Below are positions 13,877-19,456 of a stretch of DNA of 24,558 nt, in pieces. Every line of letters starts with the position of its first letter. Position 1 is the stretch's first letter. Origin of the DNA: Acutalibacteraceae bacterium (GTDB lineage: Bacteria; Bacillota; Clostridia; Oscillospirales; Acutalibacteraceae); NCBI GenBank assembly GCA_045649445.1, contig JAZRPX010000190.1:1-24558 (forward strand). Reading direction: 5' to 3'. Under the pieces are notes generated by a model. The model was not told the DNA's origin. It made no database searches and saw only the letters and a program-made list of their open reading frames with translations. A program made the translations under genes and the position numbers.

Positions 13877-13914
13877 AAAACACACGGGTTGAATTTCAAC
13901 CCGTGTGTTTTTTT
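13877..13914. terminator. Intrinsic terminator at the end of the catabolic operon
   Basis: AAAACACACGGGTTGAA-T-TTCAACCCGTGTGTTTT, perfect 17-bp arms abutting the MBL stop codon. Confidence 0.9.
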
Positions 13915-14590
13915 ATATCTTTATTTCCTCAAATGGTTTTGGAATTACTGTTTTAACCGATTCAAACTCTTGTGGTTTTAATTCGTCAAAGAGTGAAAAA
14001 TGAAGCGGTACTGCAACTTTTGCGCCAATTCTTTTTGCAAATTCTTCAGCGTCATAAGCGTTCATATTGTTACCAACACCGTTGATTGGCATAAATACTG
14101 CATCAATTTTCTCATCAACCTCTTTAAGCACTTTTTCGTTATAAAGAGTGTCCCCGGTAACATAATAAGTTTTGCCTTCTGCTTCAAAAACAACGCCAAC
14201 TGCGTAAAAATCAGAATGCTCCGCATAAACTGCTTTAAATGTAATACCATTTGCAGTAAAACGAGTGCCTGCGTTAAACATAACATAGTTATGATTGCCT
14301 TTGAAAGTTGTTCTTACCTTTTCCCAAGCATTAAACGATGCCAAAACAGTAACGCTTTCATCATTATTAAGGTAATGCTCAAGTGTTTCAGGGTCAGTAT
14401 GGTCAAGATGAGTATGAGTTAAAATAATAACATCAGGTTTTACTTTAAGATAACTTTCATCAACAGGGTATCTACGCCAAAGTTTTGGGTTAACCTTGCC
14501 ACAACTGTCTGAAAGATAAGGATCAATCATAATTTTTTTGCCAGCAGTTTCAAACAAAAGACCTGCTTGGCCAAGCCATGTTATTTTCAT
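13913..14590 (-). CDS. MBL-fold metallohydrolase (UlaG-like; candidate lactonase)
   Basis: ITWLGQAG, IDPYLS, THTHLDH (HxHxDH), YVTGDT, PING..NNM, VPLHF; ATGA overlap with the aldolase stop. Confidence 0.87.
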   Translation of the reverse strand: MKITWLGQAGLLFETAGKKIMIDPYLSDSCGKVNPKLWRRYPVDESYLKVKPDVIILTHTHLDHTDPETLEHYLNNDESVTVLASFNAWEKVRTTFKGNHNYVMFNAGTRFTANGITFKAVYAEHSDFYAVGVVFEAEGKTYYVTGDTLYNEKVLKEVDEKIDAVFMPINGVGNNMNAYDAEEFAKRIGAKVAVPLHFSLFDELKPQEFESVKTVIPKPFEEIKI

Positions 14591-15240
14591 AAATTTGCCC
14601 TCGCTCCTTTGATTTTTTCTAAATGAAGTTTTGCAAGGCGTCCCATTTCTTCATAATCTTCTGATTCGATAAGTTCAGGTTTTAAAATAGAAATGCCTGT
14701 TGCAACACCTTTAGCGCCGGCTTCAATAAAACACTCAATAGTGTCAAGATTAGTGCCACCAACACAAATATAAGGAATATGCGAAAGAGGTCTTGCAATG
14801 CCTTTAACATAGTCAACATCATTTTTGGTAATAGGGAATAATTTAATCAAATCAGCGCCTGCATTATAAGCAGTCATCATCTCGCTTGGAGTTAATGAGC
14901 CAGGAATTGAGGTGAGCCCTAATTCTTTGGTTTTCTTAATAACTTCAACATCAGTATTAGGTGAGAAAATAAACTTTGCGCCTGCTTCGTACGCTGCTTG
15001 AACAAACTCTGTTGAAATAACAGTGCCTGCGCCAACAACGATTTTTTCACCCATTTCATCAATTATTGCTTTGATAATACCGGTTGTTGTTTCAATTGTA
15101 TTTTCATCAGAAGGATTAAAAGCAATTTCAACAACCTTTACACCAGCGTTATAAAGCGCATTTGCTATTTTAGGAGCTTTTACTTTATCAACCCCACGAA
15201 AAATAACAATTAAACCACTATCTTCAATTATCTTTTTCAT
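14587..15240 (-). CDS. KDPG/KHG-type class I aldolase (Eda/DgoA family)
   Basis: IVIFRG, VVEIAF, VGAGTV, FIFSP, PG..TPSE, IKLFP (Schiff-base lysine), VGG. Start ATG 15240 chosen from GGAG spacing. Confidence 0.88.
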   Translation of the reverse strand: MKKIIEDSGLIVIFRGVDKVKAPKIANALYNAGVKVVEIAFNPSDENTIETTTGIIKAIIDEMGEKIVVGAGTVISTEFVQAAYEAGAKFIFSPNTDVEVIKKTKELGLTSIPGSLTPSEMMTAYNAGADLIKLFPITKNDVDYVKGIARPLSHIPYICVGGTNLDTIECFIEAGAKGVATGISILKPELIESEDYEEMGRLAKLHLEKIKGARANL

Positions 15241-16423
15241 ATTTTTCATTCTCCAAACCTTTGAAATAGTAGTGAATATCATCTTTAGGACGAATATCAG
15301 TTACAGCGCCTGTGTAGTGACGTAAGTTTCTTGGAGTGTAAGGACGAGCAAGAACTTCATCAATATTAACATCAATACCAAGACCTGGTTTATCAGGAAT
15401 TTTGATAAAGCCATCGTTGAATACAACTTCTTCATTTGTGATTTTCTTACGGAAAGAGCCGTCAGTAAGCATAATTTCGTGAATGCAGAAATTAGGAACA
15501 GTTGCAGCAAGTTGCAAAATAGCCGCATTTGAAATTGGGCCTGATGGGTTATGATAAGAAATCATAATATGTTTTGCTTCTGCCATTGCCGCAATCTTTT
15601 TACCTTCCATCAAACCGCCTGTATGGAAAACGTCAGGTTGAGCATAGTCAACAGCGTCTTTTGAGAACATTTCTTGGAAGGCATATTTTGTATAGCCACG
15701 TTCACCTGCAGCGATAGGCACTCTTGAATGAGCGCGAACATAAGCAGTTGAATCCATATTATCAGGAACACATGGTTCTTCCATAAACATTGGTTTAAAT
15801 TGCTCAAGTTCTCTTGAAATTTCAATAGCAGCAGTAGGACCAAATCTACCGTGACACTCAATAAGCAAATCAACATTATTGCCAACTGCTTCTCTAACTG
15901 CGCCAACGATATTAACTGTTTTCTCCATTTGTTCTTTGCTAATTGTCATATGAGCAGCGCCGAATGGGTCCCATTTAAGCGCTTTAACGCCGAGTTCAAC
16001 TGTTCTTTTTGCCTTTTTAGCAAACTCTTCAGGTGTTCTAGCGCCTATAAACCAAGCGTTTGCATACATTTTAACTTCATCACGCATTTTACCACCTAAA
16101 AGGTTGTATGTAGGTGTGTTGAAGAATTTACCTGCAATATCCCAAAGTGCAATTTCGATACCACTAATAGCAGACATCAAAACTGCGCCGCCTTTCCAGT
16201 AAATATCTCTGTAAACTTCGAAAAGCATTTTTTCAATTTGAAGTGGGTCTCTACCAACAACAAGTCTTTTAAGGTCTTCAACCATACCTTCAAGCGCTTT
16301 TTCGTTAGTGCCTAAAGATGCTTCGCCCCAACCGTAAAGCCCTTCATCAGTTTCAACTTTGATAAATGCCCAGTTTGTTCTGTAAGCATCAAGAGTATAA
16401 ATTTTAACATCTGAAATTTTCAT
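15224..16423 (-). CDS. Enolase-superfamily acid-sugar dehydratase (mandelate racemase subgroup, galactonate dehydratase-like)
   Basis: IKVETDEGLYGWGE, GGAVLMSAISGIEIALWDIAGK, LLGGKMRD, IECHGRF, FMEEP, AAGER, QPD, HNPSGP, IHE. Confidence 0.88.
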   Translation of the reverse strand: MKISDVKIYTLDAYRTNWAFIKVETDEGLYGWGEASLGTNEKALEGMVEDLKRLVVGRDPLQIEKMLFEVYRDIYWKGGAVLMSAISGIEIALWDIAGKFFNTPTYNLLGGKMRDEVKMYANAWFIGARTPEEFAKKAKRTVELGVKALKWDPFGAAHMTISKEQMEKTVNIVGAVREAVGNNVDLLIECHGRFGPTAAIEISRELEQFKPMFMEEPCVPDNMDSTAYVRAHSRVPIAAGERGYTKYAFQEMFSKDAVDYAQPDVFHTGGLMEGKKIAAMAEAKHIMISYHNPSGPISNAAILQLAATVPNFCIHEIMLTDGSFRKKITNEEVVFNDGFIKIPDKPGLGIDVNIDEVLARPYTPRNLRHYTGAVTDIRPKDDIHYYFKGLENEKYEKDN

Positions 16424-17187
16424 TATTTATTACCCTCCTTAAATGGTAAAAGTGATATTAAAATGCCGGAGTCAATAGTAAGTTCTGTTCCGGTAACAGT
16501 TTTTGAGAGGTCGGTGCCAAGATAAAAAACACCGTTTGCAATGTCTTCACCTGTTGATTCAATACCAACTGGCCAATTTGCTCGTCTTGCAGCGATTTGC
16601 TCGTCTGTAAGACCGTCCCAACGCTCAGTACGAATAGCGCCTGCAATAAGAGAATTAGAACGAATACCGTAATTTGCAAGTTCAATTGCGAGTGAACGAG
16701 AAAGGGCGTTTATACCACCCTTTGAAGCAGTATACATACTTCTTCCAAAGATACATTGCTTTGAATGAACCGAGCTTAAAAATACAAGCGCGCCGTGATT
16801 TTGCTCTTTCATAATAAGAGCGGCTTGTTGAGCGCAGAAGAAAGAACCCTTTAAATTAATGTCTAAAACACTGTTATATTCTTCTTCATCAATTTCTAAA
16901 ACATTCATATCAACGCCTAAATTAGCGGCATTTGCAACGAAGGTATCAAGAGAACCAAAATCTTCTCTTATTTTTTTGAAAACACATTTAATGTCATTAA
17001 CATCAGAAAGATTAAGTTCATAACCTTTTGCTTTAATGTTGTATTCTTTAGCTAACGCTTCGGCTTGAATTTCAGCTTCCTTCTGAATTCTAGAAGAAAT
17101 AGCAACATCAAAACCCTCGCTTGCAAACTTCTTTGCAATTGCAAGGCCGGTATTTTTAGTAGCGCCGGTTATAAATACTGTTGGCAT
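16423..17187 (-). CDS. Short-chain dehydrogenase/reductase (SDR)
   Basis: ITGATKNTG, NAA, INLKG, SSVH, YTASK (YxxxK). TAATG overlap with the dehydratase; start ATG 17187 with GGAG RBS. Confidence 0.9.
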   Translation of the reverse strand: MPTVFITGATKNTGLAIAKKFASEGFDVAISSRIQKEAEIQAEALAKEYNIKAKGYELNLSDVNDIKCVFKKIREDFGSLDTFVANAANLGVDMNVLEIDEEEYNSVLDINLKGSFFCAQQAALIMKEQNHGALVFLSSVHSKQCIFGRSMYTASKGGINALSRSLAIELANYGIRSNSLIAGAIRTERWDGLTDEQIAARRANWPVGIESTGEDIANGVFYLGTDLSKTVTGTELTIDSGILISLLPFKEGNK

Positions 17188-17210
17188 AAACACACTCCTT
17201 TTTTTTAAAA

Positions 17211-18572
17211 TTATTCTTCGATAATTTCATAAGCTTTTTTATCGGTAATTACTAAAGGATACTCTTTTAATGGAACATTATAAGCATAACCGTGATTAAA
17301 TTCTGGCACTTCAAGTTCAAAAACTTCGCCTGTAAATGTATCAATAAGAATTGGATTATCAAGTTTTTTAAGAATGTTGATAGTAGTCATATTAGGGTCT
17401 TCAAGTGGCTTTTTCAAGTTTGAAGGGTAGTAATAAGCGAAAACCGGAATTTCGTTTTTATCAAAACTCATTTTTTGACAAGCCATTGAATCAGCAGGAT
17501 TTTCGCTCCATACATAAGCGATGATAAAATCATCTGATGGTTTAATGTCACCACTTAAAAGAGTTGATAAATATGTTATAGTTTCATAAGATTTTTTAGG
17601 TGTATATGTAAGACCGTTTACAATTCCGTGACCAGCAGGTTTTTTGATAACCTGGGTTGCTTTTTCATATGGTTTTTCCCACATATCTGCCATTTGGAAG
17701 AAAGAACTCATTTTAGCGCCGAGTGATACATCAATAAAGTATCTACGCAATTGATAAACTGCCTGAGGACGTTCATCATCGCAACCTTCTTTAACAAGCC
17801 AATGGCCTTCATAAGCCCAAGATGGATAACCACCTTCACCTTGCCAAAGTTCAACATGTTCAAGCCCATGTTTTTTAAGCAATCTTCTAACTTCAGCTAA
17901 CGCTTCGCCAATTCTGTATTCAGGAATTGTTGAATAAGTGTGATAAGCAAAAATATCAAGATACTCTTTTTTAACATTTGAGAATAAATCTTCAAAATAT
18001 TGAAAATATGTTGGAGCGCAAGTGTTTACAACGAATTTTGCTTCAGGGTGAACATCGCTAATTTCTTTTGCAGTTATATTCACAAGTTTAGCAAGTTCTG
18101 CGCCATTAGGTTTTTCAGGATACCAGAAATGGTCAAGTTGTGATTCGTTCCAAATTTCAAAATAATTAACCTTGTCTTTATAACGCTTTGCAACTGCTCT
18201 TGCGAACTTTTTCCATGCCTCAACAGTTTCTTCGCCAAAGTGAATAGGAACACAGCCAACGCCGGTTGGATTAGGAAGCTCGCCCATATAAACTGGGTTG
18301 CCAAAAGAAACGCACAACCATGGCTCGATTCCACGATTATAAAGATTATCAACAACATCATCAAGCCATTTCCAATCATAAACGCCTTTTTGTTTTTCAG
18401 TTTTAGCCCAACCTGTTTGACAACGCGCATATTTAATGCCTGTTTTTGCAAGTGGCTCATAACATTCTTCTGCTTTGAATAAATCTCTGTCTAAACAACA
18501 AAAGTCAATACCAACATAAGATTTTTCAATTTCTTTTGAAGTGTAAGTTTTAAGTTTTCCGATTTTTTTCAT
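17211..18572 (-). CDS. Clan GH-A glycoside hydrolase, GH39-like, no signal peptide
   Basis: ARCQTGW..TE..KGVYDWKWLD, EIWNES (acid/base Glu), FAYHTY, LWQGEGG (nucleophile Glu). Start ATG 18572 with AAGGAG RBS. Confidence 0.78.
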   Translation of the reverse strand: MKKIGKLKTYTSKEIEKSYVGIDFCCLDRDLFKAEECYEPLAKTGIKYARCQTGWAKTEKQKGVYDWKWLDDVVDNLYNRGIEPWLCVSFGNPVYMGELPNPTGVGCVPIHFGEETVEAWKKFARAVAKRYKDKVNYFEIWNESQLDHFWYPEKPNGAELAKLVNITAKEISDVHPEAKFVVNTCAPTYFQYFEDLFSNVKKEYLDIFAYHTYSTIPEYRIGEALAEVRRLLKKHGLEHVELWQGEGGYPSWAYEGHWLVKEGCDDERPQAVYQLRRYFIDVSLGAKMSSFFQMADMWEKPYEKATQVIKKPAGHGIVNGLTYTPKKSYETITYLSTLLSGDIKPSDDFIIAYVWSENPADSMACQKMSFDKNEIPVFAYYYPSNLKKPLEDPNMTTINILKKLDNPILIDTFTGEVFELEVPEFNHGYAYNVPLKEYPLVITDKKAYEIIEE

Positions 18573-18665
18573 TGCGTTACTCCTTAATTGTTTTTGTAAA
18601 ACAAAGTATTTATTATATAATAACACCAATTTATTATAATAAAAATATCAAAAACAACAAAAAAC

Positions 18666-18694
18666 TTGCACTTTTCACGCATTTTTGTTATAAT
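18666..18694 (+). promoter_or_regulatory. sigmaA-type promoter of AraC gene
   Basis: TTGCAC(18666-18671), 17 nt, TATAAT(18689-18694) with extended TG. Confidence 0.8.
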
Positions 18695-18712
18695 GAGCAA
18701 AGAGGTGATGAA

Positions 18713-19456
18713 ATGGAAATTAAAATATTTTCAGTAGCCGAATATCAACCGAAAATAAGAAAGAAAACAATAGCTTCTCGTGTATCGTCTACATTTCTTT
18801 ATATAGAGAATGGCGAATATATTTATCAGTTTAAAAACAAACAAATAAAGGTTTGTTCTGGTGAAACTTTATTTTTGCCAAGAGGCAGTAATTATGAATA
18901 TGAGGTTGTTTCTAAAAATGCGCATTGTTTCCAAGTTGAATTTAATATAAAATCTTTTGAAAATGAGTTTGAATTTAACAAGCCATTTGTAATAAACGCT
19001 CAAAACAGCGAAATAATAGAAAAGCAGTTTTCTTCTCTTTTAACGAGTTTTCGTAATTCTCAACAAGGGCTTATTAAATGCTATGCAATTATTTTAGACC
19101 TTTTAACGCTTGTTGATAATCAAAAGGAGAAATTCAAATCAAAAATTCGCCCTGCAATTGAATATATTGAGCAAAATTATACCCTTGATTTTTCAATAAG
19201 CCATCTCGCGCGCATTTGTAAAATAAGCGAATCTCAATTAAGGCGTTTGTTTCAATCGGAATTAGGCATTTCTCCGTTGAAATACAGAAATTCTTTGCGA
19301 ATTAAAGAAGCATGCGCGCTTTTGAAAAGTGGTGAATTAAATGTTTCGGAAGTTTCTGAAATTTTAAAATTTGACACCCCTTATGCATTTTCAAAAGCGT
19401 TTAAAAACGAAATTGGTTGCTCACCAAAATCATATCAAATAAATAATTTTAAATAA
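18713..19456 (+). CDS. AraC-family transcriptional regulator
   Basis: C-terminal LARICKISESQLRRLF...SPLKYRN.LRI..AC.LL...VSEVSEILKFDTPYAFSKAFK..G.SP; cupin-like N-terminus. Start ATG 18713 with GAGGTG RBS. Confidence 0.92.
   Translation: MEIKIFSVAEYQPKIRKKTIASRVSSTFLYIENGEYIYQFKNKQIKVCSGETLFLPRGSNYEYEVVSKNAHCFQVEFNIKSFENEFEFNKPFVINAQNSEIIEKQFSSLLTSFRNSQQGLIKCYAIILDLLTLVDNQKEKFKSKIRPAIEYIEQNYTLDFSISHLARICKISESQLRRLFQSELGISPLKYRNSLRIKEACALLKSGELNVSEVSEILKFDTPYAFSKAFKNEIGCSPKSYQINNFK

Follow-up and report, generated by a model that had tools for sequence, protein, structure and literature searches.

A predicted oxidative sugar operon conserved among Clostridia and metagenomes combines a GH39-like glycosidase, a DgoD-like dehydratase and an Eda-family aldolase and may operate without a kinase

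For fucose, rhamnose and pentoses, kinase-free oxidative routes have been described, with aldolase families other than that of the operon analysed here, a five-gene sugar catabolic operon which lies, together with a divergent AraC-type gene, at positions 13877 to 19456 of a 24,558-nucleotide stretch of DNA (the window) from an Acutalibacteraceae bacterium (assembly GCA_045649445.1, contig JAZRPX010000190.1, positions 1 to 24,558 of the forward strand). The Dahms pentose route and the L-fucose and L-rhamnose routes, for example that of Veillonella, share with the chemistry proposed below an aldose 1-dehydrogenase, a lactonase, a dehydratase and an aldolase releasing an unphosphorylated aldehyde, with no kinase (PMC9795676, PMC11199699). 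The described non-phosphorylative aldolases belong to the DHDPS/NAL family (KDGA-type) and the lactonases to SMP-30 (PMC9795676). Bacterial pentonate dehydratases of the Dahms-type routes are mostly of the IlvD/EDD family, whereas the window operon carries an Eda-family aldolase, a DgoD-like dehydratase and a putative lactonase of the metallo-β-lactamase (MBL) fold; by sequence classification, every enzyme family differs from those of the described bacterial Dahms-type examples. Further non-phosphorylative pathways occur in Bifidobacterium (L-fucose and L-rhamnose) and in a pseudomonad (D-fucose and L-arabinose); other aldolases of such pathways belong to the HpcH/HpaI family, and other lactonases are amidohydrolases.

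The De Ley-Doudoroff pathway of Escherichia coli (dgoRKADT plus galactose dehydrogenase and a lactonase) resembles the operon in that a DgoD-type dehydratase (34% identity) and a DgoA-type aldolase (32% identity) stand in one operon, with the same dehydrogenase/lactonase logic upstream. However, the window cassette has neither DgoK nor DgoT, its regulator is of the AraC type instead of the GntR-type DgoR, a glycosidase is built into the operon, and its aldolase, which falls into a separate clade, has Ile at the phosphate-binding Ser position. Measured against a dgo operon, the cassette falls short by its missing kinase and probably also by its phosphate site. The 3,6-anhydro-D-galactose route of carrageenan degraders (DauA to DauD) is similar in that a DgoD-like enolase-superfamily enzyme is followed by an aldolase of the 2-keto-3-deoxy-6-phosphogalactonate (KDPGal) type, downstream of glycosidases, and the window dehydratase matches PDB 5OLC, which we take to belong to this route, at 166 bits. 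The Dau route uses an aldehyde dehydrogenase and not a short-chain dehydrogenase (SDR), needs no lactonase, and has a 2-keto-3-deoxygalactonate (KDGal) kinase in its cluster. The sulfo-Entner-Doudoroff route is defined by a sulfoquinovosidase of glycoside hydrolase (GH) family 31, an IlvD/EDD-type sulfogluconate dehydratase, an exporter of sulfonates and a sulfolactaldehyde dehydrogenase. The window has no member of these families, and none recurs among related cassettes. The phospho- or sulfo-sugar substrate which an original prediction, made from the DNA alone, had allowed for finds no support.

The five enzyme genes and the divergent AraC gene named in that prediction were all found by profile searches, with the families as claimed. 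The features are as follows.

18713..19456, + strand: AraC-family regulator, 247 aa, divergent from the operon (PF12833 at 68.7 bits, PF00165; ATG 18713 after GAGGTG)
18573..18712, no strand: divergent control region of 140 bp between the GH and AraC genes, read directly from the sequence
17211..18572, - strand: GH39-like glycosidase of clan GH-A, cytoplasmic, 453 aa, encoded first in the operon (Pfam, AlphaFold 2 [AF2] model, conserved Glu pair)
16423..17187, - strand: SDR, 254 aa, putative aldose 1-dehydrogenase (PF13561 at 175.8 bits)
15224..16423, - strand: enolase-superfamily acid-sugar dehydratase, DgoD-like, 399 aa (NF010624 at 345.6 bits)
14587..15240, - strand: Eda/DgoA-family class I aldolase with an altered phosphate pocket, 217 aa from ATG 15240 (PF01081 at 106.7 bits)
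13913..14590, - strand: MBL-fold hydrolase, 225 aa, putative aldonolactonase, optional in the cassette (PF13483 at 69 bits)
13877..13911, - strand: hairpin terminator closing the operon, with a 16-bp stem, 7 G-C pairs and a 3-nt loop, directly 3' of the MBL stop codon

Translational coupling, which had also been proposed, is seen as TAATG at 16423 between the SDR and dehydratase genes, as a 17-nt overlap (15224 to 15240) between the dehydratase and aldolase genes, and as ATGA at 14587 to 14590 between the aldolase and MBL genes. The GH stop codon and the SDR start codon are 23 nt apart, with AAGGAG-N7-ATG ahead of the SDR.

It is an even call, in our estimate, that the operon is a self-contained, kinase-free oxidative cassette for a neutral aldose freed inside the cell, where we infer the substrates, the direction of the SDR reaction and the independence from a kinase. 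A glycoside would be imported via a transporter encoded elsewhere and cleaved by the cytoplasmic GH39-like enzyme, a predicted retaining glycosidase in which E143 would serve as acid/base and E246 would be the nucleophile. The SDR would oxidize the free aldose at C1 to the aldonolactone, which the MBL-fold enzyme would open, and the DgoD-like dehydratase would convert the aldonate to the 2-keto-3-deoxy-aldonate. Finally, the Eda/DgoA-family aldolase, forming a Schiff base on Lys133, would split this acid directly, with no phosphorylation, to pyruvate and an aldehyde, namely glycolaldehyde from L-arabinose, D-glyceraldehyde from D-galactose or D-lactaldehyde from D-fucose.

The operon is a real, conserved catabolic cassette and probably a mobile one. 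Its SDR-dehydratase-aldolase core recurs in approximately 60 independent loci of genomes and metagenomes, so the arrangement is not due to chance, and the GC contents of the contigs, from 36 to 66%, place the cassette in very different hosts. When metagenomes were scanned with the dehydratase, orthologues of 67 to 99% identity turned up in 50 loci; in 41 of these an aldolase gene lies next to it, and in 30 an SDR gene does. Among the sampled genomes of the class Clostridia, the core is present in about 2% and a related version lacking the aldolase in about 10%. Close orthologues of the glycosidase (42 to 78% identity, from metagenome-assembled genomes [MAGs] of Clostridia) adjoin an AraC gene and the SDR, dehydratase and aldolase genes in varying order, most of the loci being without the MBL gene (L009, L015, L016, L022, L025, L028, L127), while other orthologues stand alone with an AraC gene. 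On high-GC contigs, GH39-like genes 27 to 34% identical to that of the window again adjoin the cassette.

In most related loci, the cassette is bordered by an AraC-type gene. A census of the 111 genes within two positions of the cassette blocks counted eight AraC-type and five XylR-like regulators, six GH42 and two GH2 genes, four MFS transporters, three ABC permeases, three DUF4838 genes, three aldose 1-epimerases and two propeller lactonases; GH36 (α-galactosidase) did not figure in the top 25 families. This pattern is expected if a free aldose, either released by a glycosidase or imported, undergoes C1 oxidation, lactone hydrolysis, dehydration and cleavage. That this combination of enzyme families is perhaps undescribed, as had been suggested, agrees with the literature searched, in which no description of it was found; neither did searches for a galactonate dehydratase together with GH39, or for an MBL lactonase together with an enolase-type dehydratase and an aldolase, return anything.

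One indication of the order of the reactions is the lactonase position, which is filled by three different folds: the MBL protein in the window, L129 and L147; an SMP-30/gluconolactonase between the aldolase and GH genes in L127; and a seven-bladed propeller lactonase (PF10282) in L165 and L175. Aldose 1-epimerase (mutarotase) genes occur among the flanking genes in three loci. Three non-homologous, interchangeable lactonases, the mutarotases and glycosidases, and the intact catalytic residues of the dehydratase and the aldolase lend strong support to the order aldose, lactone, aldonate, 2-keto-3-deoxy acid, pyruvate plus aldehyde, and the comparative gene context thus backs the sequence from glycoside to pyruvate and aldehyde which had been put forward at the outset. 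The MBL protein matches PF13483 and PF12706, keeps an intact HTHLDH motif and shows a weak match to the UlaG lactonase; among solved structures, it matched only UPF0173-type hydrolases, which the literature mentions in passing, and neither source yielded a function. The SDR contains the YTASK catalytic motif; glucose 1-dehydrogenase (166 bits) and L-rhamnose 1-dehydrogenase (132 bits) are among the NCBIfam models that it matches best, and neither score reaches the cut-off. It scores under every sugar dehydrogenase cut-off, and its best PDB matches are FabG proteins. We propose that it is an aldose 1-dehydrogenase, a role suggested by the lactonases and mutarotases of related cassettes.

The dehydratase contains PF13378 and PF02746 and exceeds the cut-off of the NCBI model NF010624, 'galactonate dehydratase' (311 bits). 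Its IECHGR, FMEEP, AAGER and SYHNP segments align with LDFHGR, FIEEP, AAGER and APHCP of E. coli DgoD, an alignment according to which the catalytic motifs of DgoD-type enolase-superfamily enzymes, i.e., the metal ligands and the His acid/base, are kept. Solved structures did not reveal its function, as the best matches (2POZ, 4E4U and 3RR1) are named only 'putative dehydratase' by structural genomics. In 399 genomes of the Clostridia class, two tiers of dehydratases are found. Seven genomes have orthologues with 70 to 100% identity, where the SDR is always adjacent and the aldolase is adjacent wherever the contig allows. Approximately 40 have a paralogue with 53 to 58% identity in a unit that lacks the aldolase and consists of MBL, dehydratase and SDR genes, in some cases together with a GH16-like gene. 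The neighbours of this aldolase-less unit, checked for a downstream pathway, were creatininase-like, GNAT, GH16-like and DUF6259 genes, with no consistent partner among them. The host itself has such a second DgoD-like dehydratase, 57% identical to that of the window, beside a divergent AraC gene at a contig end (C110:142-2245). In metagenome loci L147 to L201 (36 to 66% GC), the dehydratase is at least 67% identical to that of the window, the aldolase 35 to 50%, the SDR 28 to 50% and the GH 27 to 34%. The explanation is either an unusually strong constraint on the dehydratase or a transfer of the cassette from host to host.

The aldolase scores far above the PF01081 cut-off of 27.8 bits and keeps the equivalents of Eda residues E45, T73, K133, G162 and G163, while Ser184 is replaced by Ile183. 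The Eda phosphate site consists of G162, G163 and S184, and an engineered variant, S184L, acts more efficiently on hydrophobic substrates without charge (PMC3962226). In an alignment of 52 aldolases of the clade, the equivalents of E45, T73, K133, F135, G162 and G163 are invariant, and position 184 is Ile in 29, Ala in 13, Val in 6, Gly in 2 and Thr in 1, but never Ser. The two Gly residues belong to the second aldolase of L127, beside DgoK, and to the L023 aldolase, whose gene overlaps a PfkB/KdgK-type gene; neither is a cassette member. In our tree, the cassette aldolases form one clade, which is sister to DgoK-linked DgoA-like aldolases. Inspection of the phosphate pocket, which had been called for, thus gave a divided answer: the two glycines remain, and Ser184 is lost across the cassette clade. 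In two other loci (L217 in G103:C6 and L218 in G132:C1), aldolases that belong to this kinase-less clade and have Ile at Eda-184 lie between an IlvD/EDD-family dehydratase and an SDR, so that this aldolase subfamily pairs with two unrelated dehydratase families.

The first of two refuting observations named in the original prediction was that orthologous clusters usually include a kinase, and this is not so, as one DgoK and one PfkB other than KdgK were found in approximately 60 cassettes. When hidden Markov models of PfkB and DgoK were run over all neighbouring open reading frames (ORFs), they detected a single DgoK, next to the second aldolase paralogue in L127, and a fructokinase-like PfkB in L015, the KdgK-type genes being 8 kb off or beside a canonical Eda. 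No kinase family is among the top 25 of the flank census. We also listed all PF01081 genes of five cassette genomes. Their non-cassette aldolases adjoin KdgK (four of five) or DgoK (three of three), which indicates that cassette organisms normally keep kinase and aldolase together; at Eda-184, the KdgK-adjacent aldolases have Ser, the DgoK-adjacent ones Ala or Gly, and the cassette aldolases Ile, Ala or Thr.

Two loci with kinase genes deserve description. L127 (G213:C33, 2-13358) encodes an IlvD-type dehydratase, a DHDPS aldolase, a pectate-lyase-like gene, an SDR, an MBL protein, a second Eda-family aldolase and DgoK, followed by the cassette with its SMP-30 lactonase and GH39-like gene, so that kinase-linked and kinase-less aldolase paralogues stand side by side. 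In L015, the PfkB gene 640 bp downstream of the cassette was considered as a 2-keto-3-deoxygluconate (KDG) kinase and rejected, since its product resembles fructokinase (40% identity to a non-KdgK paralogue) and also carries a SASA esterase. In this 632-aa protein (L015:13856-15754), the fructokinase-like PfkB domain is joined to a carbohydrate esterase domain of the SASA (sialate O-acetylesterase) type.

For the sugar, the D-galactonate configuration at C2 to C4 is the likeliest, and the candidates are L-arabinose, D-galactose and D-fucose. A galacto-configured aldose is indicated by the match of the dehydratase to the galactonate model, by the neighbouring GH42 and GH2 genes and by the position of the aldolase on a DgoA-like branch. 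GH42 and GH2 are typical β-galactosidase or α-L-arabinopyranosidase families. A bacterial IlvD-type L-arabinonate dehydratase is reported to prefer D-fuconate, L-arabinonate and D-galactonate (PMC9795676), preferences by which these three acids group together as substrates. The host and five other cassette genomes have the Leloir genes galK and galT, so that D-galactose would already have a route and a second one is not obviously needed, a point which tells against D-galactose and mildly favours L-arabinose or D-fucose. The 2-keto-3-deoxy acids of these two sugars cannot enter the KDPGal route. AraA (PF02610) was found in none of seven cassette genomes, which was considered as evidence for an arabinose route and discarded as uninformative, given that only 57 of 399 genomes of the class (14%) have it.

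Several observations weigh against the pathway as proposed, its kinase-free operation included. The phosphate-site residues G162 and G163 are kept in the cassette aldolases and, as the DgoK-linked sister aldolases have Ala or Gly at position 184, the loss of Ser alone does not prove a loss of phosphate binding. To our knowledge, no natural Eda-family aldolase has been established for a non-phosphorylated sugar acid. No aldehyde-handling gene recurs near the cassette, and the MBL gene is optional, being missing from most of the close orthologous cassettes. A 2022 review of Dahms and Weimberg enzymes does not mention KDPG (2-keto-3-deoxy-6-phosphogluconate) at any point (PMC9795676). Furthermore, a KdgK orthologue is present in 12 of 12 cassette genomes tested, the host included, against a base rate of 51% (203 of 399) in the class, an association that is suggestive only since the 12 genomes are related and all saccharolytic. 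The search for kdgK or dgoK elsewhere, which the prediction had asked for, showed that the host encodes an Eda-KdgK fusion split over two contig ends (C121:7-836 and C153:12693-13634); its kinase part scores 547 bits with NF041633, 'KHG/KDPG aldolase/sugar kinase fusion', and is the only KDG-type kinase found in the MAG. DgoK (PF05035) was found neither in the host MAG, which is 83% complete, nor in G387 and G103, which are 95 to 99% complete; three of five cassette genomes have it. Since KdgK is encoded elsewhere in the genome, 'kinase-free' is true of the operon and not of the organism, and the second refuting observation named in the prediction, use of a kinase encoded elsewhere, may yet apply. 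What holds of the kinase-free pathway as first predicted is that the operon and its related clusters lack a kinase and that Ser184 is lost, and we would put such a route itself at an equal chance of being right or wrong.

The KdgK distribution, the host fusion, the retained glycines and the sister position of the DgoK-linked aldolases are what one would expect of a semi-phosphorylative De Ley-Doudoroff pathway, in which D-galactose would yield 2-keto-3-deoxy-D-galactonate, a kinase would act in trans (KdgK of the fusion, or DgoK), and the cassette aldolase would be a KDPGal aldolase giving pyruvate and glyceraldehyde 3-phosphate. The DgoK of L127 lies 2 kb from the cassette, and there is a precedent for a pathway kinase encoded outside its cluster in LguH of Luteolibacter (PMC12632266). 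We nevertheless deem such a pathway possible but rather unlikely. Across approximately 60 loci in hosts of 36 to 66% GC, the cassette travels with lactonases, mutarotases, glycosidases, transporters and regulators but without a kinase, and the KdgK co-occurrence may just mirror a saccharolytic lifestyle and shared ancestry. Where DgoK was not found, a KDG kinase would have to accept the C4 epimer, whereas the KDG kinase of that same study did not accept KDGal (PMC12632266), and most cassette aldolases have a bulky Ile, Val or Phe at position 184. If the kinase does act in trans, the operon would represent an ordinary galactose oxidation pathway in an unusual gene layout.

Improbable, in our view, is a different reaction order, where the SDR would be a reductase or a 2-keto-3-deoxy-acid dehydrogenase (KduD-type or uronate-reductase, as in the D-galacturonate pathway of fungi) and the MBL protein would not be a lactonase. 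In the fungal galacturonate route, too, a reductase is followed by an enolase-type dehydratase and then an aldolase, with no kinase, and both the FabG-like SDR, which is above no sugar dehydrogenase cut-off, and the MBL protein, with its UPF0173-type matches only, speak for such roles. However, the recurrence of three unrelated lactonase families and of aldose 1-epimerases is sensible only with conversion of a free aldose to a lactone, and no uronate isomerase or uronate-type transporter recurs in the cassettes. Less probable still is a substrate already phosphorylated or sulfonated at C6, in a sulfo-Entner-Doudoroff or 6-phosphosugar variant which would make a kinase unnecessary. The weak match of the MBL protein to L-ascorbate 6-phosphate lactonase (29 bits) and the presence in related loci of PF10282, a family which includes 6-phosphogluconolactonases, are compatible with it, but hydrophobic residues stand in place of the anion-pocket Ser184, the transporters linked to the cassette belong to the MFS and ABC types and not to the phosphotransferase systems, and the linked glycosidases are GH39-like, GH42-like and GH2 and not GH1/GH4 phospho-glycosidases or a GH31 sulfoquinovosidase. 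Moreover, we know of no enolase-superfamily dehydratase for phosphorylated sugar acids.

Beyond this operon, we tentatively suggest, at slightly less than an even chance, that an Eda/DgoA subfamily naturally devoid of phosphate binding (Ser184 to Ile or Val) forms, with a DgoD-like dehydratase and an SDR, a horizontally mobile kinase-free cassette which, among anaerobes of the gut and rumen from several phyla, combines with varied glycosidases, lactonases and transporters. Such a cassette would supply the gene set that is missing for an L-arabinose or D-fucose route of the Dahms type or for a non-phosphorylative D-galactose route, with the GH39-like enzyme as a new glycosidase specificity feeding it. 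If so, genes labelled 'KDPG aldolase', a very common family, and 'galactonate dehydratase' by annotation pipelines would do something different, and the cassette aldolase would represent a natural equivalent of the S184L variant obtained by engineering, of interest for biocatalysis. With a kinase-independent aldolase, metabolic reconstructions of gut and rumen bacteria would mis-assign or miss the route and its aldehyde (glycolaldehyde, lactaldehyde or glyceraldehyde).

The GH39-like glycosidase represents an uncharacterised family, which is large and whose source names in the database are uninformative. Its GH39 score (PF01229) is 26.5 bits against a cut-off of 26, covering residues 63 to 236 only, and GH42 reaches 31 bits. 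In a Foldseek search against the PDB, the AF2 model, built from 20 homologues with a pLDDT of 91, has GH39 enzymes as its top five matches, with PslG first (TM 0.72, 17% identity), then GH39 xylosidases, and afterwards other clan-A folds. N142-E143 and E246, at the usual clan-A positions of the acid/base and the nucleophile, are invariant in the 20 homologues, and the N-terminus is not hydrophobic. With GH family 39, which comprises β-xylosidase, α-L-iduronidase, PslG and the bifidobacterial GAfase/AAfase, the protein shares a predicted (β/α)8 barrel plus β-sandwich, the NE acid/base and the Glu nucleophile; it differs by its identity of only 14 to 18% to solved GH39 enzymes, a Pfam score at threshold and its cytoplasmic location. 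Judging from profile and model, the label 'GH39-like' seems fair, whereas membership in the family itself would be borderline. Enzymes of the α-L-arabinofuranosidase type are among the GH39 members (PMC10688797).

GH16-like genes were observed at other positions of related loci. A protein of approximately 280 aa (PF00722, 40 bits) is encoded between the dehydratase and the SDR of the aldolase-less unit (L142:8469-9317, likewise L134, L138, L141 and L144), and a 278-aa counterpart (34 bits) lies between the GH39-like gene and the SDR in L056.

In the window, three start codons were revised. The GH gene starts at ATG 18572, behind AGGAG, and not at 18629; the SDR gene starts at ATG 17187 and the AraC gene at ATG 18713. 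With the revised GH and AraC starts, the two genes do not overlap and are 140 bp apart. This control region contains TTGCAC-17-TATAAT facing the AraC gene as well as the ribosome-binding site AGGAG of the GH gene, and no promoter for the operon was mapped in it. The AraC protein encoded on the opposite strand probably activates the operon in response to the sugar. The remainder of the window contains housekeeping genes and a gene for an [FeFe]-hydrogenase, and neither a kinase nor a sugar transporter; the initial claim that both were lacking thus agrees with the window ORFs scanned. The hydrogenase gene, at 14-1324, is consistent with the host, a MAG of 1.75 Mb, being the apparent anaerobe it had been taken for.

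The terminator at 13877-13911 is a perfect 16-bp palindromic hairpin with an A run on one side and a T run on the other. On the operon strand, its tail AAATTTGTCT has five T in the 8-base scan window, without an unbroken T run, and on the + strand a continuous TTTTT follows the stem. Flanked in this way by an A run and a T run, the hairpin could terminate transcription in both directions.

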